A stretch of 59,679 nt of DNA from Pseudovirgaria hyperparasitica (lineage: Eukaryota): NCBI GenBank assembly GCA_010093815.1, contig ML996586.1. One strand, 5' to 3'. A program made the position numbers and the translations under genes. Under the pieces are notes generated by a model. The model was given only the letters and a program-made list of their open reading frames with translations, did not search any database and was not told the DNA's origin. Positions 7,005-59,600 of the stretch are shown here, piece after piece. Position 1 is the first letter of the stretch; the number at the start of each line of letters is the position of its first letter.

Positions 7005-7367
7005 AACTGAGACACTAGGACGAAAGTGTGGACGGTCCTTCCATGCCCTATTCGATTACACAGATGGCACAGGCCAGATTCTGTGGAAGTTGAAGCTACA
7101 AATAGAACAATACTTTCTCTAGCCCTCAGGCCGTTACTTGTAGACGCAAAAGACCAGTACTTTGAGCCGACCATTGCCGGTGCCGTAAGCGGAAGTGGCG
7201 CCCCGCACAAGTGCTGTTCACTGCAGAAGATCGGATATGTCTATTGTTCAGGATGCATCACACGTCTCGGCGTGATTGCCCAAGTTCCAGGCCTTGTATC
7301 TCCTGTTATACACTGGGTTTACGACCTTTAAATCAGAATCCAGCAGATAATCTCAAAGCAGCCGGAA

Positions 7368-9293: not shown

Positions 9294-10241
9294 CTAGTCT
9301 CTTATGGACTATTGGCTGTGCTGAAAATGTACTGAAACTTCCGCCGCCGCTTTAAGTGTCTTCCAGCGACCCGATTTTGTCGCCGTTGCCCTTTTCCATG
9401 CTTCTACAGATCGCCATGTCACAGTCTGATCTTGCGAGATATTTCACTTCGTGCATACGGCGTCCGATCTCATCGCATCTAGCAATAGCTCGAGTTTTCT
9501 CGTGAACTGTACCTTCAGCATTTTCAAACCAAGTTACGACGTGAAGCAAACCCTACCTAGAAAATTATCTAGCTATTAAAGTAAGATCGCGCTACGAAAC
9601 CAGTTTATGGCATCACCTTTGTAGCCCAAACCAAATCCTGACTTCTGATATGATACGAAATGAGTAACAATGTATGTGTACGTAGTAAGACAGTCATGGT
9701 TGGCTGAACTTTACGTCAAGAAATTTGCACATCTTTTTTGACTGAGGATGCCAAGGATATACAGCGATGAATGAGTACAGAGGGTCATTGGGTTGAAGCG
9801 AAGGTTCGGTGAGAGGTGTCTCTTTGTCCCTTGAATTCCAATGAGTAGCCATGTATCAGCCTGCCGTGCTTCTGGCATCCCAAGACGCGGATCAGATTAT
9901 CTGACTATCCCGAGATAGAAACATTGAGGCCTTGTTTTGGACATAGCAGCCAGGTAGAGCTGTTCACGAAGCAGACGAGGCGCAGACATGAATTTGTCCA
10001 AGAGTATCGTTAGGCTTCCAAGGCTGCTTGGGACAAGCCGGCGAAATGAGCTCTTCGACAGAGCGCTCACTGATTGGCCCTGCAGCAAGATCTCACTGTA
10101 GTGAGTGTGAGAGTCCTGGAGATCGTATATTCGTCAGGTTGACCCCAAACTTTGCCGATATATTGCTTGTCGTTTGTGGCAACTGACGAAACATCAAGCA
10201 CCGCCACCGAACATGACACCTTCTGCAAAGATCGTGACCAA

Positions 10242-12162: not shown

Positions 12163-12664
12163 CGGGCTTCGTCACAAGGTGTAGAAGGCAGATTGTGTTT
12201 CTCGAGCGGAAACTCGAATAGATAAGGCGCATAGTCCATTAAGAGCGGTCTAAGAGCTTTGAAAACGAGTAAAGGCCTGCGGGCGGGTGGCGATTGTGTC
12301 TAATAATCTTTGAGCACAATGTACAATGCTGACTATGCATATGCATCTCACACAAGGAGCATTTCACTATGACACTGTTTATAAGAAAGATAATCGCAGT
12401 TGCGGTGTTGTGATCTTGTCCAGTCTGAAGTGTGTGGAACGACATCTCGACGCTTTCAGACTTGTGTCACTCAAGTTGATTTGAGAACAAGGCCTTGCTG
12501 TCCTTCTGGCAACGTTCAGAGTGAAGACACGACGACAGGGACAAGTTCATCAATGGTGACTGGTGAAGTATTCGAAGCGATATTGACATAGGACAGTGTT
12601 AATTACGCTAGCATCGCAGCGGTGTATTGATTGGCTCTGGTCATGTCGAATCGAAAGTACATTG

Positions 12665-14338
12665 TTAACTTTTCCTATCGCCTTCGAAGCGAGGCTCTCC
12701 TTCTGGAAAAGGAGGAGGAGCATATGCTCTCCTGGGGCCATCGATGGGCGGAAGGTTTTGACCAACCGCGTCTTCGTAACTCGGAGGAGCGTCCTCGTAC
12801 TCCGCGCTAGGCTGCTGGTACACTTGACCCTGAGGTGGTGGTGGACCAGATGGACTTACTGGTGTATTAAGATGAGAAGGCCCAGGAGCAGATGGCCCAG
12901 GAGTTACGACCAGAGGGGGCTTTAATCCAGTTCCGGGCACTGTATCCGCTTCCATGGCCTTTAAGAGTTCCCCAGGTGGCTTAATACCAGATAAGACTCT
13001 CACGGGCAGTCGCAATGGAAGGACAACTAGTTGGTCTTTACCATGCTGATAAGTTCCGTAACCAAGACCAACTCGAACTTCAAGCTCGTAATGCCTCGAG
13101 ATACTACAAGTTTCGAACGAGGGGGCCACTGTGTTTGGTAAAGGGTTGCCCATCCAGTACTCTGGATTGATGGCAGTTTCCGTATCGACAGCATCGCTGG
13201 GTGACCCGATCGGTATCGCCATATTGCTAAGGCTGACGACAATCCAGCTATTCGATTCGGTGCGCGAGAACTCGTGTGCTCGTACCTTTGTGTAACCTAT
13301 CAGCTCAATCTGGAGCATTTGCAGATATACATTTGCGGTCCGTTCGCTGAGCTGCTTCAGCAATATACGGAGTGGCAACTCATCATTGCAGGTGAGTGTT
13401 GCAGGATTCGGGAGGCGCACGTCTACTGCGAAGCGTGGCGGCGGACCAAGAGAGCCGACAGGAGGACTTCCGGGCCCCGATGAAGACGACTTAGACAGTG
13501 CTCCGAATATGCTCTTCTTTCTTTCCGGGCCTGTCTCTGGAAGGAACTGATGCTGCCTCCTTGCATATGCCTCGCCATCTCTGCAACCGGGTGGTGGCTC
13601 TATTGGTAGAAAGTTGAAATGGGCCCACTGCAGGAGAGGTCAATGTGAGATTTGTTATCTAAGACAGCCCGTAACATACTGCTCTCAAATTTTCTTTGTA
13701 GAATTGTGGTCTCGCGACAGTCACTTTCACGAAATATCTGATCTCCGCTTCGCCGGGGAAGCCATTCAAGGTAGGAGGTAGCGTCTGTTTGGTGTGTTGT
13801 GTGGGAGGTTTTGCGATCTCCATCTGCAGTCCACCGAAGGTCACCGCAGGTTGATAGCCAGTTTGCTGCCAACATTGGTTATTGAGAGGTATCTGGAGGC
13901 AAATCAGCACTGTGGTACTCCGACGTACTCGATGTAGACTTCGACCTACCTTGAACTCGAAAGGCCAGTCATATTGGCCAGCATTGAGCGTAAAGGAATT
14001 CTTCGTTACCTGGCCGTGCATGTGCTGCGGTGGCCATACCGTCAGAGTCTTGTATAGTAACTGTCGAATCTATTAATACCGCAGACAGTGCATGGTACGT
14101 GCAAGAAACAGGGAGCGATCGCATGACTGACTTTGTGAACTTCCAGGACTACTCTCTGACGCTCCGACCTGCCAGGCAGGTTCGGTGCCGTTAGGCGCGT
14201 CTTACACTCGCTCTCGAGCTTCACAACGACCTGGCTCACACTTGTACTAGTGGGTACTTTCAATATGACCTTGCCCTTTACTACATCCAGGTTCGTATAC
14301 AGCGGATTCTGCTTTTCGAGGTAGACGGACACGATCAT
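12665..14338 (-). CDS. Alpha-arrestin (arrestin-N domain protein with PPxY motif), 4 exons
   Basis: YTNLDVVKGKVIL, LNAGQYDWPFEFK, LPPTL...AEIRYFVKVTVARP, APSFETCSISRHYELEVRVG and C-terminal APPSYEDA. Three GT..AG introns at ~14061-14131, ~13896-13949 and ~13631-13680. Confidence 0.88.
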
Positions 14339-14805
14339 TTTCAGGTTGGATTACGCGACAAGGAACCGATGACGACAGGTGGGGCAGATCGCATGGTATG
14401 AATGAGATGACCAAGGGATGATATACTCGGTGGAGCGCGATTCAGGAGTTCCTATGACTTGTAGGAACTGATATAAATGAAGGCTGATTGTGGTTGTGAA
14501 TGCGGTAATCTTTCACACAGCCCGAGGCCGCGTCAACTGTGGTGAGAAAACATGGCTGGCCCGATGGTTTTTGCGGTGCGGTCCGGCAGCAAAACGGTTG
14601 CCTCAGCCCCTCCTGGAGCGTCTCAGCTGGCCTAGTATTGCAGGACTCCGCCCATGGACCAACAAACAGAAAAGTGTGCGTAGCATCGGTGTATAGTCTC
14701 CTATCTGATGTAGCAGAGATTCTTACAAGTCCTTATCTTCGGTATATGCAAATAATTCTGTTGCACTATTGAATATTTATCGGCCATATCTACATCAGGT
14801 CGCAT

Positions 14806-16313
14806 CTACAGTCCCTCCTTTGCTAACATATCTATAACGAGTGTTAACACTGAGAATCTTATCGCTTGTTAACTGGAGATCGGTGTACCTGTGATAGCAA
14901 GATAGAAAGCAATAGCGTTGAAACTGTGGCTATGTCAGTCATCTTGTGGAAGTTCTGGCGTTTCACGTCCCGTTTGCGTTAAGCTTACTTTCGTTTACTG
15001 CCAGTCAGTTCCCAGAAAAACCATTTCAGGCGGTTGGTCCAGTTGATTAGATCTAAGTGGCTCACTCCTACTAGAGTGCCCCTATACTCACCCCACTGAC
15101 TACTGGGAACGCTGGTGTTATGCTTAGTTTCAAGTTCAAGCATGGTTGATCATGAAGAATACCTCACAAGACCATCATTTGGAGCATTTTCCGCTTCCTT
15201 TATGATGTTGAATGATGGGCGGAAGACAGACCAGAAGGTCGGTTCCAAGGACGCACCATAAGAAAAATACCTGGCAAGGGTGAGTGCTATTGAGCCGCGT
15301 ACATAATGTCGAAGACTTAGAACAAACCGGATGCCCTCGACATCTGGTGTTTTGGGATTGAAGTCATTACGCATATACTCCATTGTAAGTTGAGAGAAGG
15401 CGCCTGTCTCGAGACCAAAGCTCTCGAGGATGTTATAGAGCTTCGGAATGTTTATGGCTACCTGTCACTTAGTTACCATGTCTGATGCTCAGGAGAAGGT
15501 CTTACGGCCAATCTGCTTGAACATATAGTCTGCAAAAGCAGATCCCCGATGGGGCGTAGCTATCGTGGTCAAAGAACGTACGTCCACATATAAGGCTTCA
15601 GGCGGCTGATCATATATCTTGCATCGAGTCCACTATACGAGCGTTCAGTCAAGGTCCAAGTGAAAAGGTCGAGTAGTTGTCAATACCCCTGTCGACTGGT
15701 TAGCGAAGTCGTTCAGTCGGTATCCTCAAATTCAATTTACCATGCTATGCCTGATTACAGTCAGCCTTGACACTATCTATGGTATATTTATGTCCTACGC
15801 TATGATGTTCACGCTTTTGCCCCTCGCAAGCCTGTGTATGCTTTCTCCAAGCTTTGCTGCTCTTTCTTCAATGGATCCAGCCGCAGGTGCTGTCGCTGAC
15901 ATGACCTCTATACCGTTAACTTTGAAAGCCTCTCTTATACCTCGCCAGTATTGTACTCCTGGAAGTGATCGACCAGCAAGATGTAATTCATCGAAGCCAA
16001 GGAGGCCATGAGCTAGCACGATTGGATACTTCTACAAGTATCGTGAGTCCATGGTGATTCGTACAAAGTTCCATGAAGAGCTGACTAACTGGTTTTTCTG
16101 CAACATGTCAGACTGTGTATTTCATTGATACCGCAAAAACTTACGATACTTCTCTCGAATTTGCGCATACTCGTCTTGGATTACTTTGCCTAAGTCCCCT
16201 AGACGTGGGTCGGACGTGCCTGCGGCACTGCTGCTATATTGTGACCTGAGCAATGAACCCAAGGGCTTCTTTGACAGAGCAATGCGACATGGCGCACGCT
16301 GGACGAGTAGCAT
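14806..16313 (-). CDS. TGL2: TGL2-like triacylglycerol lipase (alpha/beta hydrolase), 11 exons including micro-exons; apparent 1-nt frameshift at ~15590
   Basis: PIVLAHGLLGF, AHSMGGLDARY (nucleophile elbow), TTIATPHRGS, PNDGLVS, VSHLDLINW and FYLAITDMLAKEGL* were assembled across ten canonical GT..AG introns. Confidence 0.85.
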
Positions 16314-37900: not shown

Positions 37901-39139
37901 CTTCTTTCCGGCCGTATATTAGATAATATCGCCCTAGAGTAGTAACGGGTAGAAGTTCTTAATACTAATTTTATTTAGGCCTCTTATATCCCTAACTATC
38001 TAACTAGCGTCCTTATATAATATCTAGGTAAATAACTTTACTATAGAGTATATAATAAATATTAGAAAACTAAACGGTATTAACTATATTAGATATTCTA
38101 TATAACCTTATATATAAAGCTTATTATATACCTTATTAATAATAGCCTTACCGCTTACCCCTAATAGGTAGATATAGTAGCTTAGCTTTATACTAGCTAT
38201 TTTCTAGTTACTTACTAGGGGAATATATATCTAGTCTTTCTCTAGGATATTTATAAGTCTAGTATTATAAAATAAGTTAGTATAACTTTAGATAATATTA
38301 TTAAACTTCTAGGTAGTTACTTTATCTTTAGTATAAATTTTTATACTAAACGCGCCTATCTATTTAACTTTATTAAGCTAAGTAAGCTTTATAGATAATC
38401 CCTCTATACCGTCTAAAGGGACTACTTTAGCCTAAAATATATAGAGGGCGTCTATTTTATCTATTAATATACTAAGTCTTATATTTTTATTTATACGTAC
38501 CGATCTAAATCCACGGTTTATAATAAATATATATACTATATTTTAGTTAGTAAGATATATATAGATACCTCCGCTCTAACTAAGCCTTATACTTATATAT
38601 ATTAGGGTGAATATATAATCTTCTACGGCTAACTTATACTAGTAATAGATTATAATCGGGACTAGCGTAAGTATTTATAGCTAGAGAATAGTATACTATA
38701 AAATAGTTACTCTCTAGTATACTACTAGTTAAATAATAGTAGTAAAGGTTAGTATAGTAATCCCGCTATATATACTAATAGTTATAATGGATGTAACTAA
38801 GGTGTTACTACAATGGTAATTAGAATATATTATAATTTAACTTAGAGAGAGTGGGGTAGCTCGTATAGGTTATAGCTTAAGTATAGTCTTAAGCGAGGTC
38901 ACGTGATACCCCTATACTAGTCTCTATCTATCCCGGCTCCGTTATATAACGCTAGAGATAAGGTAAAGCCGAAGTCCATAATATACCCTTATTCTCCAGG
39001 GTTATCTTAGGGACCGGCTTGGTATTTTATGTAATAATAACCGGCTCGGTTAGGTCTTAGGTTTACGGTCTTCATATCGTACTATATAATAGTAGTAGGG
39101 CTATATATTACGTCCGGTAAGGTGGCTATATCCTATAGT

Positions 39140-39680
39140 CGCGTCTCGGTCGCGTAATAGAGGAGGGTTCCTCTATAATAGCGTTGTTAGTTATATAATT
39201 ATATAGTAGTAGTACCTCGTGGTTATATTCTAGCGGTTACATGGCGGAGGAAGGTTCCTTATATCACGGCGTCGTTAGTTATATAATCGTATGGTAGTAG
39301 CATCTTATGGTTACGTCCTAGCGGTCACGTGGTAGAGGAGGGTTCCTTACCTCACGGCGTCGTTAGTTATATAATCGCACTATAGTAGTATCTTATGGTC
39401 GCGTCCTAGCGGTTACGTAGCGGAGGTAGATTCCTTATACCACGGCGTCGTTAGTCATGTAGTCGCATAGTAGTAGCATCTTATAGTCGCGTTCTAGCGG
39501 TCACGTGGCGGAGGTAGGGTATCCTACGCATGAACCGCGCGTCTTATTTATTATTACCTATTTTAGGACCGGTTCTTCTCTAGGCTAGGGGTTAGGTAGT
39601 AGTAGTAGGGTAGCTTACGCACGACCCGCGTTTATTACTATTATTATCTATTTTAGAACCGGCTCTACCCCGGTCTACAC
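39140..39680. repeat. Tandem arrays inside C1: ~4.5 x 88 bp followed by 2 x ~90 bp
   Basis: g(g/a)ttcc anchors at 39166, 39253, 39341 and 39429; second unit (acgcacgacccgcg..ttttaggaccgg) at ~39526 and ~39617. Confidence 0.9.
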
Positions 39681-39828
39681 GATTTTCCCTAACGCGAGTA
39701 TATAGGTCCTACGTCTAGCGACTTTCTTCTTCTTTAACTACTATTACGCCTACTATCTCGATACCGTGTAGTAGCTACTATAATATTAGTAAACTCGCAT
39801 ACCACCTCGTAGCTTCTATACTATTATT

Positions 39829-41303
39829 ATAAGCGTGCTAGGCCTAAATAGGCCTATTATAGAAGCCGGCGCCGTCTTAGCGGTAGCTATAGGTGCTAGG
39901 GGTTAAGACCCTAACGATCGACGCGCGCCTAGGCGCTAGGAACCGCCTAACCGTACCATGAGTGGGTCCTATCTCTACGCCGTTCCTTATGCTAACTAGG
40001 TAGATTATTTCTTCTACCGCCTCCTAATAGGCTAAGCCTATTTACTATATAGGGCTATATATTATAGAGGGTAACTCGTTAGAAGACGAGCGTACCGAGT
40101 CCGTGTACTTTATATATCGTATATATATGAAGGCCCTAGAGAAGACTAGGGTACTTAAGTACGTGCTATCTCTACGCTATAGTAGCGCCTACTAATCTAG
40201 AGCGTAGCTATAAGCCTAGCCGCGGCACTAACTATATAAAGTGCTATACGTCGAAAGGGACCTACTTATAGAATACCGAGGAGCTTACCACGTACCCGGC
40301 CCTATGTAAGATATAGAGCCGCCTCGAGAAGTTCGTGTACGAGTCGGTTAATAATAACTTTAGTTATATAATAGACCGTGGTAGTCGCGGCCTAGACCCG
40401 ACTAAGCCTTCGTCCGGTAAGTGGCCGTGTATAAACTCTAAGTTCCACTACCTATATAAGGACTATAAGTCTAACTTAGAGATTACGTATATCGCCCGCC
40501 GTAACGCTAGTATTATTAGTTAGGTCCCTATAACGCCTAATCGCGGTACTATCACGGTAATTAAGACGCTATATCGTGGTAGTAGTAACCGTAGGCAGCT
40601 TAGTAGTGTAATTCACTAGATAAATTAGTATATATCGCATAATAAGGCCTAAATGGGCGAGTTACGCACTAACATTAGCGCCCTATAGATATATACTTAG
40701 TTAGCCTAATTACTACTATCTTAACACGTGACGTAGGGTTCGATATAGTAGGTCGCTTCCGGCCTAGTACGCCTAGCCGAGCCGCCGCCTTACTAACTCT
40801 TTATCTAGGCGGTTATAGAGGAGGAGAAGCCTCGTTTAAGTAGTAGTCGCCCACGCTACCCTCGGCTAAGCGGCCCTAAGAAGTTACCTACCCGTAGCCC
40901 GCGCTATCGCTATACTACCCCCCACCGGCTCCCTATTACTCCCCCCCCGTGGGAGGCCTCGCTATTACCACGCCGTCTCTATACCCCGCCCCGCCGCCAC
41001 GATCTATCCCGGCGCCGCTCTCGCTCGCCGGAGCGCCGTAGCCGGTCCCCCGACCGCCGTGACCGGTCCCCTTACTACTATAACCGGTCCCCTCGCTACC
41101 GTGACCGTTTCTATAAGTGTTACCGCCGATTCCGTAACCGCTGGCGTTATACTATTAAGGGTCGTCGCTTATCGCGTTATTACCGGTCGCCGTCTCGTAG
41201 CCGCCATAGCCGCCCCGATAAGGTGTATAACTCCCCCTTACCGCTAAGCTAGATTAATAGTTACCCCCGCCGCTAGGAGCCGGCCTAGGGGAGGACTAGG
41301 TGA
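39829..41303 (+). pseudogene. RIPed antisense 3-exon cargo gene of C1 (~459 aa): putative Cys6 zinc-cluster-like motif and RS-rich tail
   Basis: Introns 39958-40003 ((g)tgagt..gctaac..tag) and 40159-40207 (gtacgt..tactaat..tag) join three different frames into 460 codons ending TGA 41301-41303. Tail reads RRRSRSPERRSRSPDRRDRSP. Confidence 0.75.
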
Positions 41304-44300
41304 CTAACCTTATAGTTAGGATTTACGGTTAAGGACCGTGCCGGCCCTAGCGCCGTGTAGACCTAGGGTAGGGCTAGAAGAATAACCTTTTCATGTCTTA
41401 AGGAGAGTATCGGTTTATTATTAGGTTACTTAGGTACTTAGTATTTAGCGTTTAGTCTTTATAGAATCTCTACTCTTATATTAGGTTATTAGGGCTACTA
41501 TAGGCCCGTAATAGTAGATTAATATCTTTATTTAGGGATGCGCTAAAGTCGTAGGCCGTTATATAATCACGCGCTACTATACCGGGCCTTAAACCTATCT
41601 AGTACCTTAGTATCCTCTACGTCCTTAAGTAGTACCTATATTAGCTATAGCTAGCCCTTCCATTTTACGAGTACTTACCTCTTATTTCGCCTACGTGCGT
41701 TTTTTGCCCGAAGGATGTCCTCGACCTTATATTTAGTAATGTCCTTATCGGCTTCGTTAAGTTCGAGTACCGGGCCTAGGCGAGTATCTAGCTACTCCTA
41801 GCTAGGTAGGGGGTCCTCTACGGCGCGCTCGACTAGACTAACATAGACTATCTTATAAAGGTCCCCGGGGAGGTCGAGGGTTACTATTAGGGGGGTAGAT
41901 TAGGCGAGAACCCTATACTTAGTCTATAGCTAGTCGAGTTTCCGGCTCGGGCGATTAGTCTTTACGTTTCGGAGTAAGAACTATACTATATTACTAACCT
42001 TAAAGCGTTTAGCTAGACGGCGTGACCGGTTAGCCGAGTCCTAGGAACGTTACTCGGCCTAGACGATAGCCGCCTACGCTAGGGTAGTGCCGTTATAGAG
42101 GTGCTTAAGGAAGTTTATAGCCCGGCCTTTCGCTAAGGTTATGGAGGTGTTAGGGAGTAGCCGTCGCGGTAATAGTTTAATATAGTATCCATTTAGAAGT
42201 AGGTTCGGCGCTATACCGGTTACTAATAAGGTACGGTTATTTAGGGCGAGCTAGCATGCCGGTAGGCACTCTAGCTAATTAGTTTACTTAAAGGTTACTA
42301 TAACGCGAAGTACCGCCTAGACCTCCTAGTTTACTCGCTCTATACTACCGTCGGTCTATGGGTAGTAGGCCGTAGAGAGGTCCTAGTATACGTCCGTTAT
42401 AGAGTAAAGGGTTATCTAGAACTACCCTAGCTAGTCCGAGCCCCGGTCGGTAATAATAGACTATAGAAACCCCCGGAAACGCTACTATGTGTTATAGAAT
42501 CGCGCCGCGTAGTCCTTAGCCGCCATAGAGATTATCGCCTCTAGCTAGATAAATTTTAAGAGCCGATCCGTAATAACGAGTAGGTACCGGGGCCGTAATG
42601 GGTCCGATTAGGGGAGGTCGGTTATAAAGTCTATAGAAATCTAGGACTAGAAATAGTCTAGTATCGGAAGTAGCTAGAGGAGCCTAGGGGCCTTACGCCG
42701 ATTTATATAAGCTCCGTAGTAGTTATAGTTCTACATAAATCGCCGGATATTAGTCTATATACGCTTCTAGTAGTATTCCCGCCGGATAGCTACGTACGTC
42801 TTATTCTTACTAGGGTAGCCCGTAAGGGGGGAAGCATAGGACCTCTAGATAATAGTTATTATAAGCGGTTTCTATTCGGGCACCTAGATAACTCCCCGCT
42901 ACGTAAGTATCCTATATACTAATATAGTATAGTCCGTAATCTATTTAGTCGTAAGCGCCTCCGGTAGAAAGAGGTGTACCCCGTCTACTACGGCCGTATA
43001 GCGGATCTAATACGCCGGGACGGACTAAGCGGCTTAGTCCTAAAGCTCCTAGAGGTAGGGATTAGTAAAGATGCTTCGTCCCTATAGAAGGCGATCCTCT
43101 CCGGAGTAGATGCTTATAGGTACTATTTAGATAGCTCGTGGGGCTATAAGCTACCCCCATAGGAGGGACTTCTTAGATAAGTCCTAGTTACGGCGGCTAA
43201 GGGCGTCCGGGCGAGCCGCCTAGAATCCCGGCCGGTATACTAGGTTATAGTTAAAGAGTATAAGCTAGTCGGACTATCGCTACTACCGCGGGACGAGAAG
43301 GTAAGACTTAGTAAAGTACTCGAGGTTCTTATAGTCTATATAGATCGTGAAAGGGCGGTAAACGCTCCGAAGCTCGGGTTCCCACGCCTAGAGGTACTAA
43401 ACCACGGTAAGGAGCTCCTTATTATAGATTATATAGTTCTATTAGACGGCTATAAGGGCCGTAGAGTAGTAGACTATCGGGTGCTAAATACCCCGAACCC
43501 TCTAGGATAGGTACCCGCCCGTCGCGTGGCTAGAGTAATCTATCTCGACTATTATATCGCGTGTCTCGTTCTAGGATTAGAGAATAGATCCTATAATAAA
43601 AGTATTCTTAAGCTTAGTAAACGCGCGGTCCTTGGTTAGGCCCTAGTAGAAGGCCGCCCCGGCCCTAGTAAGGGCGTAGAGCGGGGCCGCTATAGTAGAG
43701 AAGTCGGGAAGAAAGTTACGGTAGAAGTTTATAAATCTAATAAATTACTAGACGCCCTAGACCGTGGTCGGGGGCTCCTAGTCCCGGATCGTGGTGATTT
43801 TCTCCGGGTCGGGGCGGATTAATTTACTAGCGGTAATAACGTACCCTAGATACCGGACTTCCTTAGTAGCGAAGCGGCACTTAGTAAGGTTATAGTAAAG
43901 GTCCGCTTTAGTAAGGAGAGATAGAATAGTCTTTACGGCGGCCTAGTGGTCCTCTAGCGTACCTAGGGTGTAGATAAGGATATTATTAAGATACGCTATA
44001 TAGGTTACCCCTAGGACCCCACTTAGTACCCCATTAATATAGCGCTAGAAGGAGGCTAGAGCACTAGAGAGACTAAACGGAAGCACGGTCTATTTAAAGA
44101 GGCCGAACCGGGTATAGAAAGCCGTCTTATGTTCGTCGCCGGCGGCCACCCGTAGTTTATAGAATGCCGCCCGAATATCGACCTTACTAAACCATAACGC
44201 GTTACTAATAGTATATAGGGTTTCGCGTATTAGAGGAAGCGGGTATCAATCCTACTCCGTAATACCGTTAAGGGCTCTATAGTTAATATATAGCCGCTAT

Positions 44301-46847
44301 TTCCCTCCCGGCTTAGGGACGAGTAATACTAGCGCCCTAGCCGTAGAGGAGCTAGCCCGTATCTAACCCTTATCTATAAGATCCGTAAGCTGGCGGCGTA
44401 GCTCTACTAGCTACTCCCGAGATATAGCGTAGAGGGGTCCCTAAGGGAGGTTTACTAGGGTCCCTACCGGGGTGGACTTAATATGGATATAGTAGTCGGT
44501 ACTCCCCCGGTAGGGGGGTAGCGCCGACGCCTTTACCTTATTAAAGAGATCGCGGTAGGCGTATAGCTTTAATAGGAGCGGGCGCCTATCCTCCGTGAGC
44601 TCGGACGTGTCCTAGTCGGGTATTAGAGGTGGCGGGGGGAGTATAAGCTATAGAAGGCGGGTGACGTCGCGGATGCTAGTAGCGACCACCCGTCCACGGC
44701 GATAAGCCGTCTCTAGAGCCTCTATAATGCGACCCTTCTCGGTAAGTACCCGAATGCGCGTTAGGCGCATATAGGTATTTATATTCTAGGCTACGAGGCC
44801 GTGGGCGCGGTAGAGCGTAATCTCGTCTACCCGTATATTAATAACGGCGCCGGCCTAGTAGAGCCATAGGCTCCCGAGGATAAGGTCCCGGTCTAGCCTA
44901 GATACTATATAGGCGGAGAGGCGCTATCTCTATCCGGCGATATCGTACTATATAGTAACGACTTCCATGATCTCCGGTCCCGACGCTCTATTAGCGGTAA
45001 GAGCCACTTAACGACGTGGGACTAAGATACGCGACTTAGCCACGTCCCCCGTAAGGGATAGGCTAACTACCGCGAAATACTTATACCCTATATCTACTAA
45101 GGCGTCTATATACTTCCTATTCTAGAGGAATAGCGATATAACGGGTGGCGGCCCGTCTATAACCCGAGCGGGTGCGCTATCCTCTAGATTAGAGCCGTGA
45201 TCTTAGTTACCCGTGGCTTCGTTCCCTACTAAATATTATAACGTCCCCTAACCCGGGCTATAGTAAGGGACTATACTTTCCCCGCCTTAGAGTCGGAATT
45301 AGTATCGTCCTAGGCCGGGGCCGCGACCTTAAGCGCCCGTATATTAACGGCGTTTAGGTAGCCCCGTTATTAGTGGCTAGCCTAGCCGCACCGGGTATAC
45401 ACGCCCGCCGTGCGGTGCTCCTAGAATAAATCCTTCGGAATCCACGAAGGAGGCTCTTTCTTCTTAACCCCGTTCTTACTCTTCGCCGCCGGTAAGATAG
45501 CTCGCTCCTTACCCTTTATCTTAACGGCCTTAATAGTAACCGCTAACATCGTCGTATCGCTATCCTTATCCTTACCCGGCTTACTTTAGGGCGCCGTGTT
45601 TTACCTAGTACGGAGCCGGAATAACTCTATATCCATGCCGATATTCCTAAGGCGGCCTATAGCGGCCTCGTATTAGTCCGGGAGGCCCCGGTTTAGGGCT
45701 ACTACCCGGGTCCCCTAGTTAAGGCCGTCCCGGAGCCGTATAAGCTTCTAGTCGTCGGCCTAGTATATCCCCCTAGCCTTCTAGAGGGCGGTATAGAACC
45801 GGACGAAGTAATCTATAAACGGCTCCTTAGCCTTTTATATAATTATATTTAGCCGTTAAAGGGCCCGCTCTTTAGCATATATATCTCTAAACTAGAACTT
45901 AAGGTAGTCTAGGAACGCGTGTAGGTCCTAGTTACCGTTTAGCCCCCTAGTAGAATATACCGCGCTAACCCCCTTCTATACCTTAGGCGCTAGGTTAGCC
46001 TAGATAAGGGCTATCTAGTCTCTATAGGTGCCGATAAACTCGGCGTCCCGGGTAATCTTATACCGTATTATAACGGACCACGTACGGAAGAGAGCCTTAG
46101 ACCCGTTATATAGATCGCCGAGGGGGAGAGGCTTCCGTTTCATAGGCCGGTCGAGTATAATATACGGGGCCGATAGTAGTAAAGTAGGGGCGCGTGTAGG
46201 TAGGGCCGGGTTAGGCCCGTATAGGCGCTAAGGTATAGCTAAGGAGGGGTCGGGCTAGGGTAGGGACGAATCCCTATAGGTTAACGTAGTAGGAGTACGG
46301 CTATATACTTCGACCATAACTAGGCGGGCGTCGATGCGCTATAGCGCCGTATAGACGCTCTGCTTAATATCGGATATATAAGACTCGCTTACCGCTTAGG
46401 CGGCCGTGATAGACTTATATACGGCCTATATTTTATCTCGGAAGCTAAGGAAGGAGTTAGAGAGTTACCGCATTAGATTAGAGTCTTACGGGTTAAGACT
46501 ATCTTATGCTATAAGGCCACGTATAGGAAGAGGTTAATAAAGTTAAATTAATATAATAGATGTGACCAAGGTGTTACTATAATAGTAATTAGGATATATT
46601 ATAATTTAACTTAGAGAGAGTAGGGGTGGCTCGTATGGGTTATAGCTTAAGTATAGTCTTAAGCGAGGTTACGTGATACCCCTATACTAGTCTCTATCCG
46701 TCCCGGCTCCGTTATATAACGCTAGAGACAAGGCAAAGCCGAAGTCCATAACAATAGTTATTATATATATACTTATATAGATATATATCTTCTAAGATAC
46801 TATAATATCTATTCTAAGAAGGAGACCTACCTATAGATAGTTAAGGA

Positions 46848-47717
46848 NNNNNNNNNNNNNNNNNNNNNNNNNNNNNNNNNNNNNNNNNNNNNNNNNNNNN
46901 NNNNNNNNNNNNNNNNNNNNNNNNNNNNNNNNNNNNNNNNNNNNNNNNNNNNNNNNNNNNNNNNNNNNNNNNNNNNNNNNNNNNNNNNNNNNNNNNNNNN
47001 NNNNNNNNNNNNNNNNNNNNNNNNNNNNNNNNNNNNNNNNNNNNNNNNNNNNNNNNNNNNNNNNNNNNNNNNNNNNNNNNNNNNNNNNNNNNNNNNNNNN
47101 NNNNNNNNNNNNNNNNNNNNNNNNNNNNNNNNNNNNNNNNNNNNNNNNNNNNNNNNNNNNNNNNNNNNNNNNNNNNNNNNNNNNNNNNNNNNNNNNNNNN
47201 NNNNNNNNNNNNNNNNNNNNNNNNNNNNNNNNNNNNNNNNNNNNNNNNNNNNNNNNNNNNNNNNNNNNNNNNNNNNNNNNNNNNNNNNNNNNNNNNNNNN
47301 NNNNNNNNNNNNNNNNNNNNNNNNNNNNNNNNNNNNNNNNNNNNNNNNNNNNNNNNNNNNNNNNNNNNNNNNNNNNNNNNNNNNNNNNNNNNNNNNNNNN
47401 NNNNNNNNNNNNNNNNNNNNNNNNNNNNNNNNNNNNNNNNNNNNNNNNNNNNNNNNNNNNNNNNNNNNNNNNNNNNNNNNNNNNNNNNNNNNNNNNNNNN
47501 NNNNNNNNNNNNNNNNNNNNNNNNNNNNNNNNNNNNNNNNNNNNNNNNNNNNNNNNNNNNNNNNNNNNNNNNNNNNNNNNNNNNNNNNNNNNNNNNNNNN
47601 NNNNNNNNNNNNNNNNNNNNNNNNNNNNNNNNNNNNNNNNNNNNNNNNNNNNNNNNNNNNNNNNNNNNNNNNNNNNNNNNNNNNNNNNNNNNNNNNNNNN
47701 NNNNNNNNNNNNNNNNN
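46848..47717. other. Assembly gap within A1 gag-pol
   Basis: 870 N; the flanks correspond to A2 positions 58746 and 59558 (811 bp in between). Confidence 1.
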
Positions 47718-47789
47718 TATTCTAGAACTAGTAGAATAATCTATAGAAGCGCTAGTTATAGCTAGTAGCTAACGTGCGTTAGCTAATAC

Positions 47790-50700
47790 TATAATAGATA
47801 TAACTAAGGTGTTACTACAATGGTAATTAAGATATATTATAATTTAACTTAGAGAGAGTAGGGATAAGCCGTATAGTTATAGCTTTAAGTATAGTCTTAA
47901 GCGAGGTCACGTGATACCCCTATACTAGTCTCTATCCGTCCCGGCTCCATTATATAATACTAGAGATAAGGTAAAGCTAAAGTCTATAATATACCCTTAT
48001 TCTCTAGGATCGTCCTAGGGACCGGCTTAGTATTTTATATAATAATAACTAGCTTAGTTAGGTCTTAGGTTTACGGTCTTTATATTATACTATATAATAA
48101 CTATAGGGCTATATATTCCTTCTAGTAAGGTAGTAGCTTTTTATAGTAGTATTCTAGCGGTTACATAGTAGAGGTAGATTCCTTATACCACGGCGTCGTA
48201 GATTATTAGGTCGCACTATAGTAGTATATTATAGTTATATCCTAGCGGTTACGTAGCGGAGGTAGATTCCTTATATTATAGCGTTATAGATTATATAATT
48301 ATAAGATAGTAGAATCTTATAGTTACGTTATAGCGGTTATTAGCGGAGATAGACTTCTTATATTACGGCGTACCGCGTCGGGTTATATAAAGGTAGAGTA
48401 GTCTACGCACGAACCGCGCGTCCCGTTTTATTATTATCCGTTTTAGGACTAGCTCCTCTCCGGGCTAGGGGTTATATAGTAGTAGTAGAGTAGCTTATAT
48501 ACGACCCGCGTTTATTATTATTATCGTCTATCTTAAGACTAGCTCTTCTCCGGGTTAGAGGTTATATAGTAGTAGTAGAGTAGCTTACGCACGACCCGTG
48601 TTTATTATTATTATCGTCTATTTTAGGACCGGCTCTACCCCGGCCTATACGATTTTCTCTAACGCAAGTATATAGGTCCTACGCCTAGCGACTTTCTTCT
48701 TTCTTAACTACCCTTACGCCTACTATCTTAATACCACGTAGTAGCTACTATAATATTAGTAAACTTATATACTACCTCGTAGCTTCTATACTATTATTAT
48801 AAGCGCTCTAGGCCTAAATAGTCCTATTATAGAAGCCGGCGCCGTCTTGGCGGTAGCTATAGATACTAGAGGTTAAGACCCTAATAATTATCGCGCGCCT
48901 AGGCGCTAGGAACTAGTCGATCGCACCGTAAGTAGGTTCTATCCCTACGCCGTTCCTTATACTAACTAGATAGACTATTTCTTCTACCGTACCCCGATAG
49001 ACTAAGTCTATTTACTATATAGAGCTATATATTATAGAGAGTAACTTATTAGAAGACGAGCGTACTAAGTCCGTATACTTTATATATCGTATATATATAA
49101 AGGCCCTAGAGAAAACTAGGATGCTTAGATATATACCGTCTCTACGCCGTAGCGGCGCCTACTAATCTTAGAGTATAGCTATAAGCCTAGCTATAGTACT
49201 AACTATATAAAGTACTATATATTAAAGGGGACCTACTTATAGAATACTAAGGAGCTTACTACGTACCCGGCCTTATATAAGGTGTAGAGTTATCTTAAAA
49301 AGTTTATACACGAGTCGGTTAATAATAACTTTAGCTATATAACGGACTATAGTAGTCGCGGCCTAGACCTAATAAAGTCTTCGTCCGGTAAGTAGCCGCG
49401 TATAAACTCTAAGTTCTACCGCCTATATAAGGACTATAAGTCTAACTTAGAGATTATCTATATCGCGCGATATAACGCTAGTATTATTAGTTAGGCTTCT
49501 ATAACGCCTTATCGTGGCGCTATAATATTATTTAAGCCGCCGTATTATAGTAGTAGTAACTATAGCTAGATTAGTAGCGTGATTTACTAGATAAATTAGT
49601 ATATATCCTATAATAAGGTCTAGATAGGTAAGCTATGTACTAGTATCGGCACCTTATAGATATATAAGCTTTATAAGTCTAAATACCTATTCTAACGCGT
49701 GACGTAGGGTACTATATAGTAAGTCGTGTCTAGGTTAGCCTACCTAGCGGAGCTACTATCTTACTATCTTATTACTTAGATAGTTATAGAGGATAAGAAG
49801 CCCTTATTAGATAGTAGCCGCTTACGCTAACCCCGGTCTATAGACTATAGAGAGTCGCTAACTTAGAGCTCTCGCTATCGCCCTATTAGGCCTCTCCGGC
49901 TCTCTATCGCCGCCCCTCCTTATAAGTTCTTACTATCTTATTATTAGCTCTAGACTTCTTCTCGCTACTATAACCGCTTCTAGTTCTATAAGCGTTATAG
50001 CCGGTCCCCCGCCTACTATAATTAGTCTCCCTACTATTATAACTAGTTATATAACTATTATAACCGGTTATATAACTATTACCGTCGCTCGGGTAGCTAT
50101 TAGTACTATTTCTATAAGGATTATTAAGTATCGCGCCGCTATTAGTTACTGGCCCGCCTCTACTATAACTCTCCCGTAGATAAGTACGACTTGCCCTCGC
50201 TACCCGCCTAGATTAATAGCCGCTACCGCTATTAGGAGACGGCCTAGGGGAGGACTAGGTAACTAACCTTATATTAGGATTTATAGATAAGGATAGTACC
50301 GGCCCTAGCGCCGTATAAATCTAGGATAGAGCTAGATAAATAATCTTTTTATATCTTAAGGCGGGTATTAGTTTATTATTAGGTTATACTAGATACTAGC
50401 GTTTAGCGTTTATTTCTTTCTTTTCTAAAATCTCTACTCTTATATTAGGTTATCGGGGCCGCTATAGGCCTATAATAGTAGAGTAATATTACTACTTAGG
50501 GATGCGTTAGAGTCGTAGGCCGTTATATAATTAAGCGTCGCTATATCTAGACTCGAACTAGTCTAGCGCCTCGGTATCTTCTACGTCCTTAAGTAGAATC
50601 TATATTAGTTATAACTAACCTTTCTACTTTATAAGTACCTATTACTTATTCCGTCTCTATATATTTTTTATATATAGAATATCCTTAATCTTATACTCCG

Positions 50701-53700: not shown

Positions 53701-55896
53701 TCTTAGTAAGAATCTAGATACTTATTAGATATCTATAGGTATTAATATCCTAGGCTATAAGGCCGTAGGCGTGGTAAAGCGTGATTTTATCTACGTGTAT
53801 ATCGATAACGGCGCCGGCCTAGTAGAGCTATAGGCTTCTAAGAATAAGGTCCCGGTCTAGCCCGGGTACTATATAGACGGTAAGGCGTTATCGCTACCCC
53901 GTGATATTATACTAGATAGTAATAACTTCCGTAATCTCTAGTCCTAACACTCTATTAGTAGCGAGAGCTACTCGACGATATAGAACTAAGATATATAACT
54001 TAGCTACGTCCGCCGTAAGGGCTAGGCTAACTACTACGAAATACTTATACCCTATATCTACTAAGGCGTCTATATACTTTCTATTCTAGAGGAATAGCGA
54101 TATAACGGGTAGGGGTCCGTCTATAATCTAAGCGGGCGCACTATCCTCTAGGTCGGAGCCGTTATCCGGGTCGTCTATAGCTTTATTCCTTACTAAATAT
54201 AGTAATATCCTCTAACCCGGGCTTTAGTAGAGGGCTATACTTCCCCCGCCTTAGAGTTAGAATTAGTATTATTCTAAGCTAGGGCCGTAACCTTAAGCGC
54301 TCGTATATTAATAGCGTTTAGATAGCCCCGGTATTAGTAGCTAGCCTAGCTATACCGGGTATACACGCCCGCTATACGGCGCTTCTAGAATAAGTCCTTC
54401 GGGATCTATAAAGGAGTCTCTTTCTTCTTAACCCCGTTCTTACTCTTTACTATTAGTAATATAGCTTACTCCTTACCCTTTATCTTAATAGTCTTAATAG
54501 TAACCGCTAATATTATCGTGTCGCCGTCCTTATCCTTACTAGATCTATTTTAAGATATAGCGCTTTACCTAGTACGGAGCTAGAATAACTCTATATCTAT
54601 ACTAATATCTCTAAGGCGATCTATAGCGGCCTCGTACTAGTCTAGAAGGCCCCGGTTTAGGGCTACCGCCTAGGTCTTCTAGTTAAGGCCGTCCCGGAGC
54701 CGTATAAGCTTCTAGTTATTAGTCTAGTATATTTCTCTAGCCTTCTAGAGGGCGGTATAGAACTATATAAAGTACTCTATGAACGGCTCCTTTATCTTTT
54801 ATATAATTATATTTAACCGCTAGAGGGCCCGCTCTTTAGTATATATATCTCCGAACTAGAATTTAAGGTAGTCTAAGAACGTATACGGGTTCTAGTCGCC
54901 GTTTAGCCCCCTAGTAGAATATATAGCGCTAACCCCCCTCTATATCTTAGGCGCTAGGTTAGTCTAAATAAGGGCTATTTAGTCCCTATAGATACCGATA
55001 AAGTTAGTATCCCGGGTAATCTTATACTATATTATAATAGACTATATACGGAAGAGGGCCTTAGATCTATTATACGGGTTGCTAAGGGGGAGAGGCTTCC
55101 TCTTAGAAGCCCGGTCGAGTATAATATATAGCGTAGAAAGTAGTAAGGCGGGAGCGCACGTAGAAAAGGCTAGTTTAGATCTATATAGATATTAGAGCGC
55201 TACTAGGGAGGAGTCGGGCTAGAGTAGAGACGAGTCGCTATAAGTTAAGATAGCGGGAGTACGGCTATATAACTTAACCGTAAGAAGGCGGGCGTTAATA
55301 CGTTATAGAGCCGTATAGACGCTATATTTAATATTAGATATCTAAGACTCGCTTACTACTTAGGCGGCCGTAATAGACTTATAGATAGACTATATCTCGT
55401 CCCGAAAGCTAAGGAAGGAGTTAGAGAGTTACTATATTAGATTAGAGTCTTACGGGTTAAGACTATCTTATACTATAAGGCCACGTATAGAAAGAGATAA
55501 TTAAAGTTAAATTAATATAATAGATATAACTAAGGTATTACTATAATAGTAATTAAGATATATTATAATTTAACTTAGAGAGAGTAGGGATAAGCCGTAT
55601 AGTTATAGCTTTAAGTATAGTCTTAAGCGAGGTCACGTGATACCCCTATACTAGTCTCTATCNNNNNNNNNNGAGATAATTAAAGTTAAATTAATATAAT
55701 AGATATAACTAAGGTATTACTATAATAGTAATTAAGATATATTATAATTTAACTTAGAGAGAGTAGGGATAAGCCGTATAGTTATAGCTTTAAGTATAGT
55801 CTTAAGCGAGGTCACGTGATACCCCTATACTAGTCTCTATCCGTCCCGGCTCCGTTATATAATACTAGAGATAAGGTAAAGCCGAAGTCTATAACA
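47790..55896 (-). mobile_element. Chromovirus C2 (diverged sister of C1), TSD AATAC
   Basis: LTRs at 47790-47991 and 55695-55896; AATAC at 47785-47789 and 55897-55901; collinear with C1; RT AYLDNILIY at ~52935-52960. Confidence 0.93.
48799..50262 (+). pseudogene. RIPed antisense cargo gene of C2 (homologue of 39829-41303)
   Basis: Same start context; gtaagt donor at intron 1; same branch sites; same terminal AGGACTAGG-stop. Confidence 0.7.
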
Positions 55897-56667
55897 AATA
55901 CCTTTTAACCGCCTTTATCTAAATCTTCTAATTCTTATTAGAACTACTATAGAGAGCGGGGCTAGTATAAGTTATAGTATTAATCGGGTTAATTAGTTAT
56001 AAGATAACGGCTATTAGACTAGCTCTAGTCTTAAGAGTTACTAAATAGTTAAGATAAGTTATAGTAATAAGAGCTGTTATATTAACTATCTTCTCTTTCT
56101 TATTAAGTAAATTAACTTAAAGTACTATACTATACACTACTAAGGTAATAGTAGATAAGTTAGTACTATTCTTTATATTTTACTTATAGAGTCTATATAA
56201 ATTAGACTAGAGATATAGATTCTATTAGTAGAGATAGACCCTAGTAAAGGAGAATATTAATACTATTCTATACGAACGTCTAAGTATTTTAGCTAGAAGG
56301 GCCTAATAGTTATATAGTACTATAGTCGTAAGCTATAGCGTATATATATAAAGTAACGTTAGTTTAGGAGCGGGTCTATTAGAGAGTATATCTTTATATT
56401 ATAAGGGATAATAGAGTATTAGATAATAGCTACTTAAACTACTTAATTAAGGCCGTAGTCTAGGCGTCTAAACTAGATAAGTAATAGAGCGCTTTCTTCT
56501 TAAGATCGGATAATTCTAATATAAACTACTTAAGGGTATATCCTCGTAGATACTAAGAGATTTTTAACTTAATAGTTTCGGTTCCTCTAGCTATAGTAGC
56601 GTCTTTAATCCGGTTAAGAAAGATATATACGCTATATATATACGTGTCCTAACCGGTAAAAACGACA

Positions 56668-59600
56668 TGTTATAGCTATAGTAGTAGTATATATCATGTA
56701 TAATTACTATAGGTAGTAGTAAACTAGTCGGATATATAAATACAACCGACCGGATACGTAGATATAAAATAGTATACTTTATAACTAATTTAACTTAACG
56801 TATTAATGATCTTAATAAAGTAGTAGCTAAAAATTAGTATCTACTAGTTTATATACTTCGAATATTAAGTTCTCTTTACTAGGCTATCTTAGTTAATATA
56901 GTAATACTAGAATAATTACTAGTTTAAGTAACCTCCTTCTTACTATACTACCTATACTAACTACTTTATTATAGACTAGTAAAACGTCCTCCTCCTAGTA
57001 CACGGTACGAGTAGAATAGACTTATTATATTACTATAAACTTAACTCTCTAGAGCTTAAGAATACTCTATTTACTAGTTATAAGACTATATATAGATCGA
57101 ACTAGATATCTATAACTCTATTACTTCCGCATTTTACTATTTAGCTTAAAAAGTTTTCTATTATACGCTAGATACTAGTAATTTTATATTTCCTATACTC
57201 TTACTAGCCGCTTATAATAACGGCTTATATTACTACTAGAGGACTTAGTTCTTCTAGGGCATTAACTATTTAGTTATAGATAAGTTAATTAATAGGCGTT
57301 TAGAAATCTACTACTACTTAAGATAGTACTTAATCGTCTTATTATTAACTATCTACCGCCCTCTACTCTAGAATATCCTTTATAAAGTAGAAGACTAGCT
57401 ACTAAGCCTTTTCTACTATAGTAGTTAATAAATTACCTAGCGTTATAAGAGGCGTATAACTTATTCCTAAATAACCCGTTAATTTAAGCTTAGTACCCTT
57501 TAACTACTAGGCTTCCTAGGGCTTTCTTAAGCTTATTAGACTTAGTTAATTATATAGTAAGCTCTAGTACGGAAGCTACTATATCCAACTACCCTAAACA
57601 TGCTAGTACTTTAGTAGAATATACTATACTATATTAGGTAGACATAGATACTAGTAATAGCGGCACGCTAGCTAGAGCCCGAATAACTAATAATAGGGAC
57701 TTTATAGTAAGGTAGTAAGCTATAATTATAGCTATAATTTAGTAGACTCTTACTTAGTAGGCGGGTAGTTCGTGGGATAACGACTAAAATCTAATAGATA
57801 GTAGTAAAAACCTACCGTTTAACAATAACGAAGACGGTTAAGGGTTTAGAATATAAGAAATTAGATTCTTCTAACCTAACTTAGATTATAGCTTTAGAGA
57901 CGGAGATATTATTTTTATTAGTTAGAATATATATATATATATAGCGTATATATCTTTCTTAACTAGATTAAAGACGCTACTATAGCTAGAGGAACCGAAA
58001 CTATTAAGTAAAAAATCTCTTAGTATCTATGAGGATATACCCTTAAGTAGTTTATATTAGAATTATCCGATCTTAAGAAGAAAGCGCTCTATTACTTATC
58101 TAGTTTAGACGCCTAGACTACGGCCTTAATTAAGTAGTTTAAGTAGCTATTATCTAATACTCTATTATCCCTTATAATATAAAGATATACTCTCTAATAG
58201 ACCCGCTCCTAAACTAACGTTACTTTATATATATACGCTATAGCTTACGACTATAGTACTATATAACTATTAGGCCCTTCTAGCTAAAATACTTAGACGT
58301 TCGTATAGAATAGTATTAATATTCTCCTTTACTAGGGTCTATCTCTACTAATAGAATCTATATCTCTAGTCTAATTTATATAGACTCTATAAGTAAAACG
58401 CAAAGAATAGTACTAACTTATCTACTATTACCTTAGTAGCGTATAGTATAGTACTTTAAGTTAATTTACTTAATAAGAAAGAGGAGATAGTTAATATAAC
58501 GGCTCTTATTACTATAACTTATCTTAACTATTTAGTAACTCTTAAGACTAGGGCTAGTCTAATAGCCGTTATCTTATAACTAATTAACCCGATTAATACT
58601 ATAACTTATACTAGCCCCGCCCTCTATAGTAGTTCTAATAAGAATTAGGAGATTTAGATAAAGGCGGTTAAAAGATATTAGCTAACGTACGTTAGCTACT
58701 AGCTATAACTAGCGCTTCTATAGATTATTCTACTAGTTCTAGAATAACTAATAAGCCCTATACTAGCTAGTCTCGGTCTCTTAGTAATAATAGATAGTTT
58801 ATCTAACTACTATAACTATTCTACTAGGCGTATAATATTTAGAAAGAATTATATAATCTAGACGTTAAAGACGCTTACTATACTAGGGTTAAAGAAGCTT
58901 TCTTCTACCTTAGACTAACCGATATAGATACTATTAAACTAGTATAGTTTAGTAACGAAACTAGCCTTACTAGCCTTAACCTACTACCTAGTAATATTAA
59001 TAAGAGCCTACCTTTATAATTTATAGTATACTAAGTAACTAATATATATCTAGTACGCTAGATCTAATATAATATTTATAATAAGATATTTCTATTACGA
59101 AATAAGCTATTTAAGTATCTTAAGAATAGAAAGTATCTTAAGATAATAGTAAACGCTAAGGTTCCTCCATATAATTATATAGTCCTAAGATTAGACGTTA
59201 TATATTATAATATCTAGGGTAATATAGTACTATTATTAGTTAATAGCCTACTAGACACTAGCCGAGCGTATAAAGAATCATACTATATCTAAGTTAAGGT
59301 CTTACTTAGTCTTAATAGCCCCGTTAAATATATCTATCTAGATATAGAAAGCGTTATAATACTAATTAACTAAGCTTTTCTTAAATAGTAGAACTCTAAT
59401 ATCTAAATACTTACCTAACTAGCTATTTCTATTTAGAAAGTAGAGGGAGTTAAGCCTATAAAGTTAACTAAATTTATAGTTATTATACTATTCCTCCTAG
59501 GCTAAACGTCTAACGATTTAACTACTATAACTATAAAAGTAATATATAAGGTATATATCCTTAACTATCTATAGGTAGGTCTCCTTCTTAGAATAGATAT

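Follow-up and report, generated by a model that had tools for sequence, protein, structure and literature searches.

Human T-lymphotropic virus 1 carries the spliced gene HBZ at its 3′ end in antisense orientation; transcription comes from the side of the 3′ long terminal repeat (LTR), and the product is a basic nuclear regulator of the virus's own expression. In plants, antisense open reading frames (ORFs) located between pol and the 3′ LTR, called aORF-3R, are described for Grande (gene23), RIRE2, Retand, and PvRetro13 (PMC7264820). The passages on these genes report that they are present in most copies with a conservation comparable to that of other element proteins, that some of their products are nuclear, that Grande has its own promoter, and that their function is unknown (PMC7264820). 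A fungal example is described for Boty-like chromodomain gypsy elements of Botrytis cinerea and Sclerotinia, in which the antisense gene brtn lies between pol and the 3′ LTR (PMC7264820, PMC8365987, PMC4227169). The brtn ORF of BcGypsy1 is cited in PMC8365987, a Boty-like element with both a CHROMO domain and brtn is described in PMC4227169, and a Monilinia transcript resembling BRTN is mentioned in PMC5987419. Accessory genes of LTR retrotransposons are seldom annotated and their functions are unknown, and brtn is the one fungal case found; literature searches (supplements excluded) returned no other fungal antisense accessory gene. Here we examine a 59,679-nt stretch of contig ML996586.1 (assembly GCA_010093815.1) from Pseudovirgaria hyperparasitica, hereafter the window. 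Our analysis indicates that a chromovirus in this window, termed family C, probably carried a gene on the strand opposite gag-pol that is now dead after repeat-induced point mutation (RIP).

Family C is a Ty3/gypsy chromovirus located on the minus strand. Comparison of the window with itself reveals two copies, C1 (38775–46754) and C2 (47783–55897), that are ~80% identical and have LTRs of ~200 bp. The relevant features are as follows.

38783–38981, minus strand: 3′ LTR of C1 (93% identity to 46552–46751 and 90.5% to 55695–55894)
39160–39518 (~48150–48440 in C2): array of an 88-bp unit repeated in tandem, between the antisense gene and the 3′ LTR (Tandem Repeats Finder; 4.1 copies, 81% matches)
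39829–39957, plus strand: putative exon 1, not supported as coding
39958–40003, plus strand: putative intron 1, 46 nt, optional (GT donor once RIP is reversed, CTAAC branch, AG acceptor)
40004–40158, plus strand: exon 2 frame, modest coding signal (codon phase, codon model, sliding scan)
40159–40207, plus strand: intron 2, 49 nt (ancestral AG|GTACGT donor as judged from the two copies, TACTAAT branch, TAG acceptor)
40208–41303, plus strand: exon 3, formerly coding, 365 codons, with an ancestral TGA at 41301–41303
40866–41300, plus strand: Arg/Ser/Pro-rich low-complexity C-terminal tail (by composition)
41304–41566, no strand: noncoding spacer between convergent stop codons (by substitution and indel pattern)
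41567–45118, minus strand: pol of C1, from protease to chromodomain (Pfam matches, intact relatives)
46552–46751, minus strand: 5′ LTR of C1 (self-comparison)
49180–50262, plus strand: exon 3 equivalent in C2, 361 codons, with heavier RIP and the frame kept throughout

The hallmarks of a chromovirus are all represented, in that the family has LTR pairs, a CCHC gag, evidence for reverse transcriptase, RNase H, and integrase, and a chromodomain motif. The minus strand of C1 matches the Pfam families RVT_1 (1e-21), RT_RNaseH (1e-13), and RT_RNaseH_2, and its pol is 47–52% identical to intact polyproteins that carry PF00665 and, in some cases, PF00385. The CCHC knuckle of gag is RIP-damaged and readable in translation, as is a KWKGW chromodomain-like motif in the chromodomain of C1 pol (~41570–41734). 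The pol stop codon, TGA at 41567–41569 on the minus strand, is kept directly after the chromodomain, and in fourteen intact relatives pol ends ~25 residues past this domain. Another polyprotein of the fungal chromovirus type, P0018, is 46% identical to C1 pol and bears the NCBI label of a Tolypothrix sp. DDE-type integrase; this cyanobacterial label probably reflects contamination or a mislabelled contig.

An earlier, sequence-only reading of this region had placed a gene antisense to gag-pol, between the chromodomain and the 3′ LTR, and this placement is correct. The arrangement is found inside both LTR pairs, and thus in two of two copies in the window. Moreover, 722 and 520 contig pieces from DNA runs of the organism match the antisense-gene stretch at a likeness of at least 80%, meaning that the stretch is multi-copy. 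Both C1 and C2 are dead in the window, with stop codons created by RIP (22 in C1 and more in C2) and many missense changes.

The three segments proposed as exons (39829–39957, 40004–40158, and 40208–41303) do join to 1380 nt, or 460 codons, and the joined C1 reading holds 22 internal stop codons (16 TAG and 6 TAA) ahead of the terminal TGA. The scarcity of stops, and their restriction to TAA and TAG, had been taken as a sign of coding, and this argument is void. Because RIP destroys TpG, TGA is nearly absent from the element, with 0–3 occurrences per 700–960 codons in all six frames over its whole length. Stop density is likewise undiscriminating, amounting to 6.0–11.5% in the pol region whichever of the six frames is read, the true one among them, and to 5.2% in the candidate exon 3 frame versus 4.9% in a neighbouring frame. 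Reversing RIP by comparing the two copies left pol uncleared (across the pol region, stops in the three frames of the minus strand fell from 73 to 64, from 85 to 72, and from 77 to 70); since the true pol frame, serving as the positive control, was not restored, this procedure is uninformative here. Alignment of 49180–50262 with 40209–41303 further reveals that double hits turn CpG into TpA, whereby Arg CGY becomes Tyr TAY, CGG becomes TAG, and CGA becomes TAA. Thus, in RIPed genes of this genome, a Tyr or stop codon may trace back to Arg and not only to Cys, His, Gln, or Trp.

Evidence for coding was therefore sought in signals that cannot arise through RIP, and pol served as the positive control for each. 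The 3-base periodicity of 40208–41303 (χ2 = 56.5, p = 2e-10) is on the order of that in two pol segments of equal length (χ2 = 30.6 and 48.0), whereas the control stretch 39000–39828 has no codon periodicity (p = 0.18). The exon 3 frame has a pronounced codon bias, with AAG/AAA at 17/1 and GAG/GAA at 13/0. When AAG and GAG are counted by codon phase, the distribution in exon 3 is 30/1/5 in C1 (p = 1e-9) and 29/3/3 in C2. A third-position A that does not follow T, which RIP cannot explain, occurs in 9 of 365 codons, versus 34 of 364 and 64 of 364 in the other plus-strand phases (Fisher p = 5e-10).

The differences between the copies are consistent with this result. Between C1 and C2 there are 331 transversions, along with numerous non-CpA transitions. 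In pol, transversions at codon positions 3/2/1 number 85/10/17 and non-CpA transitions 156/30/45, while the CpA transitions expected of RIP are flat (140/126/144). This combination of a third-position excess with flat CpA changes implies that C1 and C2 were active and under selection while they diverged, and that RIP acted on them later. In exon 3, transversions at positions 1/2/3 number 18/20/41 and non-CpA transitions 25/23/41, such that 82 of 168 non-RIP differences fall at the third position (p = 4e-5). As judged from this comparison of two copies, whose exon 3 proteins retain 55% amino-acid identity, the exon 3 frame was demonstrably under purifying selection before RIP.

Length changes follow the same rule. 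Between C1 and C2, exon 3 differs by a 12-nt indel and a compensated +2/−2 pair, and another genomic copy skips 66 and 129 nt, so that all exon 3 length variants are multiples of three. Among the copy differences listed, small indels occur only in intron 2 and in the spacer. The terminal TGA at 41301–41303 is ancestral because most other copies carry G>A at 41302, giving TAA. By its codon phase, substitution pattern, and frame-keeping indels, the plus-strand frame 40209–41303 was demonstrably once a real coding sequence. More generally, arguments from open frames fail under heavy RIP, yet the phase of RIP-immune trinucleotides and the codon position of non-RIP differences can still recover dead genes.

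Upstream of exon 3, support for the three-exon structure in the sequence-only reading diminishes stepwise toward the 5′ end. Intron 2 is reasonably supported. In a sliding codon scan, the exon 2 frame is positive at ~40020–40140 and the signal switches to the exon 3 frame at ~40200, which is the site of this intron; the scan is positive for the exon 3 frame in 40200–40424, a stretch that was outside the training set. The exon 3 frame has no ATG from a stop at 40137 to 40653. As had been pointed out, a 1-nt indel lies within intron 2 and is the sole indel between C1 and C2 in 39600–40690; it is a T added at 40197 in C2 and in two to three other contigs. Intron-like patterns arise by chance at 0.23–0.50 per kb per strand, a rate that makes one such pattern at the frame switch unlikely, though not extraordinary. 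The branch-like sites CTAAC and TACTAAT are indeed kept in both copies, and C2 does have GTAAGT at intron 1.

That the exon 2 frame was coding is modestly supported. Its AAG and GAG counts by phase are 7/1/0 (p = 0.005), and it is the best of the six frames in a codon model trained on pol (+0.107). This frame is open only as far upstream as an ancestral TGA (39959–39961) contained in GTGAGT, the putative donor of intron 1; position 39958 is G in all other copies compared (12 and 11 contigs). Exon 1 receives no such backing, as its codon-model score (−0.243) is not the best among frames, the sliding scan favours another frame, GAG/GAA is 0/2, and third-position A not after T (4 of 43) is no lower than in other phases. 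The start codon is most simply placed at ATG 40127–40129, which is intact in C1 and ATA in C2, yielding a minimal gene that runs from ATG 40127 through intron 2 to exon 3. A further in-frame ATG is present at 39989–39991, within the interval of putative intron 1.

Two other attributes of this end of the element were noted. The 88-bp array varies between C1 and C2 by indels and by copy number and length, and it possibly represents a promoter or enhancer region of the antisense gene. The interval 39675–40425, which extends from upstream DNA through the two putative introns and 217 bp into exon 3, has only seven C1–C2 transversions in 750 bp, which is below the synonymous-site rate of pol, and it has the top summed depth of related contigs. 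This low divergence may be due to recombination between subfamilies or to constraint at the nucleotide level, such as that on a promoter.

The sequence-only reading was accurate in describing the C terminus of the predicted protein as rich in RS and RDRSP motifs. Of the 145 tail residues, 38 are Arg (26%), 21 Pro, and 18 Ser, and there are 16 RS/SR dipeptides together with RSRSP and RDRSP motifs; a 21-nt (7-codon) repeat is located at 41042–41107. Many Arg codons of the tail are Tyr or stop codons in C2 through CpG-to-TpA changes. Since part of the Tyr and stop codons in the tail are derived from Arg in this manner, the ancestral tail was even richer in Arg.

We consider the best explanation for these observations, and a probable one, to be that family C carried an intron-bearing antisense accessory gene, now dead, with an Arg/Ser/Pro-rich product. 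Such a gene would have lain in the 2.6 kb that separate the 3′ LTR from the pol stop and would have comprised a short coding exon at the 5′ end, a spliceosomal intron of 49 nt (40159–40207), and a 365-codon exon ending at the TGA at 41301–41303. It would have been convergent with pol, ending 263 nt from the pol stop. Because the genomic RNA carries the gene in antisense, the intron could not be spliced from that RNA and would have been copied into each new insertion. Transcription would have proceeded from integrated DNA, driven by the gene's own promoter on the side of the 3′ LTR and the tandem repeats. The orphan product would consist of ~220 residues without a known fold followed by the RS-domain-like tail, which most likely would direct it to the nucleus and to RNA. 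There, it would modulate expression of the element, handling of its RNA, or silencing. The antisense orientation, the intron, and the R/S/P-rich C terminus of the sequence-only reading are thereby preserved, whereas its zinc cluster and its claim to be the first of its kind are not.

A number of points weigh against this explanation. Constraint on exon 3 is below that on pol, with 49% versus 70% of non-RIP changes at the third position. In 40425–40865, non-CpA transitions are flat (12/10/10) and a third-position excess is evident from transversions alone (8/3/15). The tail aligns poorly, with ~12% transversions, and in this part (40866–41303) the fractions of third-position transversions that are synonymous are 16/25 in both the plus-strand frame and the minus-strand pol frame. 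The 5′ end is ambiguous, as translation may instead have begun at 39989 or in an upstream exon. Conservation of splice motifs is not specific evidence, because 39675–40425 is conserved throughout. What suggests the proposed function is composition and analogy only.

Searches for relatives add to this side of the balance. A phmmer search of 1.84 billion protein representatives produced one match, and a profile built from the two copies matched none of 7863 candidates. In Pfam at E ≤ 10, no family was matched by four of the five pieces searched, and exon 2 had one subthreshold match (E = 0.079); the best E value in a sequence search of the PDB was 0.56. Although RIP damage reduces the sensitivity of such searches, the equally damaged pol scores 1e-21 or better. 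The single phmmer match, tandem-repeat protein P0001 (nine matched stretches), was judged spurious as a homologue. AlphaFold2 modelling of exon 3 residues 1–219 from the RIP-damaged sequence returned a mean predicted local distance difference test score of 35.3, which is unusable. In a metagenome scan with 14 pol relatives, 79 loci were recovered, all distant (≤49% identity to the query); tblastn of the ORF pieces gave no match below E = 1.7, and the antisense ORFs found downstream of pol in 44 of the 79 loci proved to be only neighbouring elements and genes. Within the window, tblastx matched C2 only.

A more ambitious form of the antisense-gene explanation holds that family C acquired, independently of and unrelated to brtn, a nuclear RS-domain protein that tuned the transcription, RNA processing, or silencing of the element in the manner of HBZ. 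We hold this extension to be rather unlikely. If true, it would constitute the first retrotransposon-encoded SR-like factor, and the conservation of 39675–40425 would represent an antisense promoter along with an essential N-terminal domain, possibly metal-binding.

Two rivals dispense with an accessory function, and we judge both to be improbable, to a similar degree. According to one, there was no gene, and the reading of 460 codons arose by chance in noncoding DNA that is TA-rich and RIPed and in which intron-like motifs are common. The undiscriminating stop density and lack of TGA, the failure of the two-copy reversal of RIP even on pol, the frequency of intron-like patterns, the absence of any homologue or Pfam match, and the lack of signal in exon 1 all agree with this proposal. 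It leaves unexplained a codon-phase bias of p ~1e-9 in both copies, the third-position excess of p = 4e-5, a periodicity like that of pol, and indels that keep the frame, signals that are absent from the control stretch 39000–39828 and from the spacer. According to the other, the ORF is a passenger, part of a host or foreign gene that an ancestor of family C picked up in reverse orientation, with no role in the life cycle of the element. Indeed, its codon bias exceeds that of pol and resembles that of host genes (third-position A not after T is 2% versus 7%, and AAG/AAA is 17/1 versus 41/17), it has one or more introns, and it has no similarity to retroelement proteins. Yet no host homologue was found in the phmmer and profile searches, and the ORF is in both copies of a stretch that is multi-copy in the genome. 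Furthermore, a neutral passenger would lose its frame, whereas here two diverged subfamilies have retained it and differ preferentially at third positions.

We regard as very unlikely the possibility that the coding signal comes from the minus strand, either as a C-terminal extension of pol or as a third sense ORF in an env-like position, in the pol frame. The minus-strand pol frame and the candidate share third positions, and the substitution excess therefore fits either one. In the tail, the summed transversions and non-CpA transitions (20/30/51) place position 2 below position 1 and position 1 below position 3 in the pol frame, an order slightly better suited to the minus strand, and the tail translation is Arg-rich on either strand. 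The codon model, in contrast, scores the minus-strand pol frame at −0.152 versus −0.028 for the plus-strand frame, and at −0.167 versus +0.018 in 40209–40865. The minus-strand frame also lacks codon bias (AAG/AAA 6/2, third-position A not after T 0.10). In 40209–40865, the third-position transversions that are synonymous number 8/16 for the minus strand versus 12/16 for the plus strand; as a control for this test, the true pol frame gives 76/85 and a decoy frame 51/85. Moreover, the pol TGA is retained, no such extension is present in the 14 intact relatives, and the spacer at 41304–41488 is without a coding signature, as its transversions by phase (4/5/2) have no third-position excess. Indels in the spacer include 1-nt and 6-nt changes between C1 and C2 and, in another copy, the loss of a single nucleotide at 41438. 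The codon model does not separate the exactly antisense frame from the candidate, but most substitutions fall at the first codon position of that antisense frame. Thus, the plus-strand candidate frame alone passes both the codon model and the substitution pattern.

The least likely proposal, to which we assign almost no weight, is that of the sequence-only reading, in which the product was a Zn2Cys6-like zinc-cluster regulator with an SR-like tail that served as a self-activator or an anti-silencing factor. In its favour, RIP does convert Cys to Tyr in family C, as in the CCHC knuckle of gag, three of the five spacings of the Tyr/Cys pattern in the spliced product are within the canonical range, and the relaxed pattern is rare by chance (four starts in ~54,000 RIPed residues and two in ~30,000 unmutated residues). 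The pattern was, however, chosen post hoc among nine Tyr/Cys in 40 residues. The proposed spacing, C-x2-C-x11-C-x7-C-x2-C-x6-C, has a first loop of 11 residues versus 6 in the consensus of Zn2Cys6 (PF00172), C-x2-C-x6-C-x5-12-C-x2-C-x6-8-C. Five of the six Cys residues are hypothetical: a single Cys is present (40242), and codons 40115, 40124, 40209, 40233, and 40263 are TAY in both window copies. Pfam at E ≤ 10 matched no zinc cluster in exon 2, in the exon 3 N terminus, or in their C2 equivalents, in searches where the pieces were unjoined and Tyr in place of Cys lowers the score.

The likely ancestry of Tyr codons in the RIPed element at large also argues against Cys. Where Tyr occurs in the RIPed pol of C1, five intact relatives have Tyr in 29% of cases, His in 26%, Cys in 14%, and Arg in 10%; for Tyr codons of the ORF that are resolved by the other copy, the partner codon is CGY in seven, CAY in four, and TGY in two. 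The TGC at 40242 in C1 is, as stated earlier, TAC in C2, but this does not prove an ancestral Cys. TGC is rare among the copies at this site (40243 is G>A in 13 and 10 contigs) and may be an intermediate on the path from CGC, given that elsewhere in the ORF a C1 TGT pairs with a C2 CGT. Finally, the two N-terminal "Cys" residues fall within (TA)n-like sequence immediately 5′ of ATG 40127 and would be untranslated if the protein started there.

Outside of family C, the window consists of host genes free of RIP damage followed by an AT-rich, RIP-mutated repeat block.

1–16000: host genes (Noc2 family, AMP-binding enzyme, lysine methyltransferase-like), without RIP mutation

In the repeat region, TpA/ApT is 2.0–2.3 and (CpA+TpG)/(ApC+GpT) is 0.07–0.23, versus 0.76 and 1.18 in the gene region. 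GC content falls from ~0.48 to 0.24 at ~16–17 kb, which marks the boundary. The 5′ LTR of C1 and the 3′ LTR of C2 are set apart by a very AT-rich spacer of ~1 kb (46755–47786), and GC content is 9% in 47001–48000. At the 5′ LTR end of C2 is a 169-bp direct duplication with 100% identity (55494–55662 and 55673–55841), and directly beyond C2 is a 746-bp inverted repeat with 98% identity (55897–56642 versus 57934–58679). Both are strikingly free of mutation for a RIPed region.

Returning to the antisense accessory gene, its similarity to HBZ is a functional analogy only, as HBZ is a bZIP protein of an animal deltaretrovirus and no homology is implied. Its predicted product has an RS-like tail in common with SR proteins, a likeness of composition only, and no RRM or other Pfam domain was detected in it. 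The comparison with plant aORF-3R is closer, since the family C gene shares their position and orientation: the plus-strand ORF 40127–41303 lies between the pol stop and the 3′ LTR, is found in both copies, and is conserved as coding sequence. The plant genes differ in that they belong to nonchromovirus lineages and encode unrelated proteins, and no RS-like tail is mentioned in the passages that describe them (PMC7264820). The family C gene is a candidate for an RS-like and, judging from composition, probably nuclear protein.

The earlier suggestion that no fungal chromovirus was known to have such a gene is overturned by the Boty-like elements. The family C gene is of a kind already known in fungi through brtn, and its zinc-cluster identity is undemonstrated. 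Library-wide searches with the RIP-damaged query found no relative of the family C antisense protein and thus no BRTN-like match. The family C copies are RIP-inactivated, and the gene is likened to brtn by description rather than by sequence. The likeness, to the extent that the sources describe brtn, is that both reside in a chromodomain gypsy element of an ascomycete, at the same position and in the same orientation, and encode a protein of unknown function. A second and apparently unrelated intron-bearing antisense gene in a fungal chromovirus would suggest that such genes have arisen recurrently in fungi.

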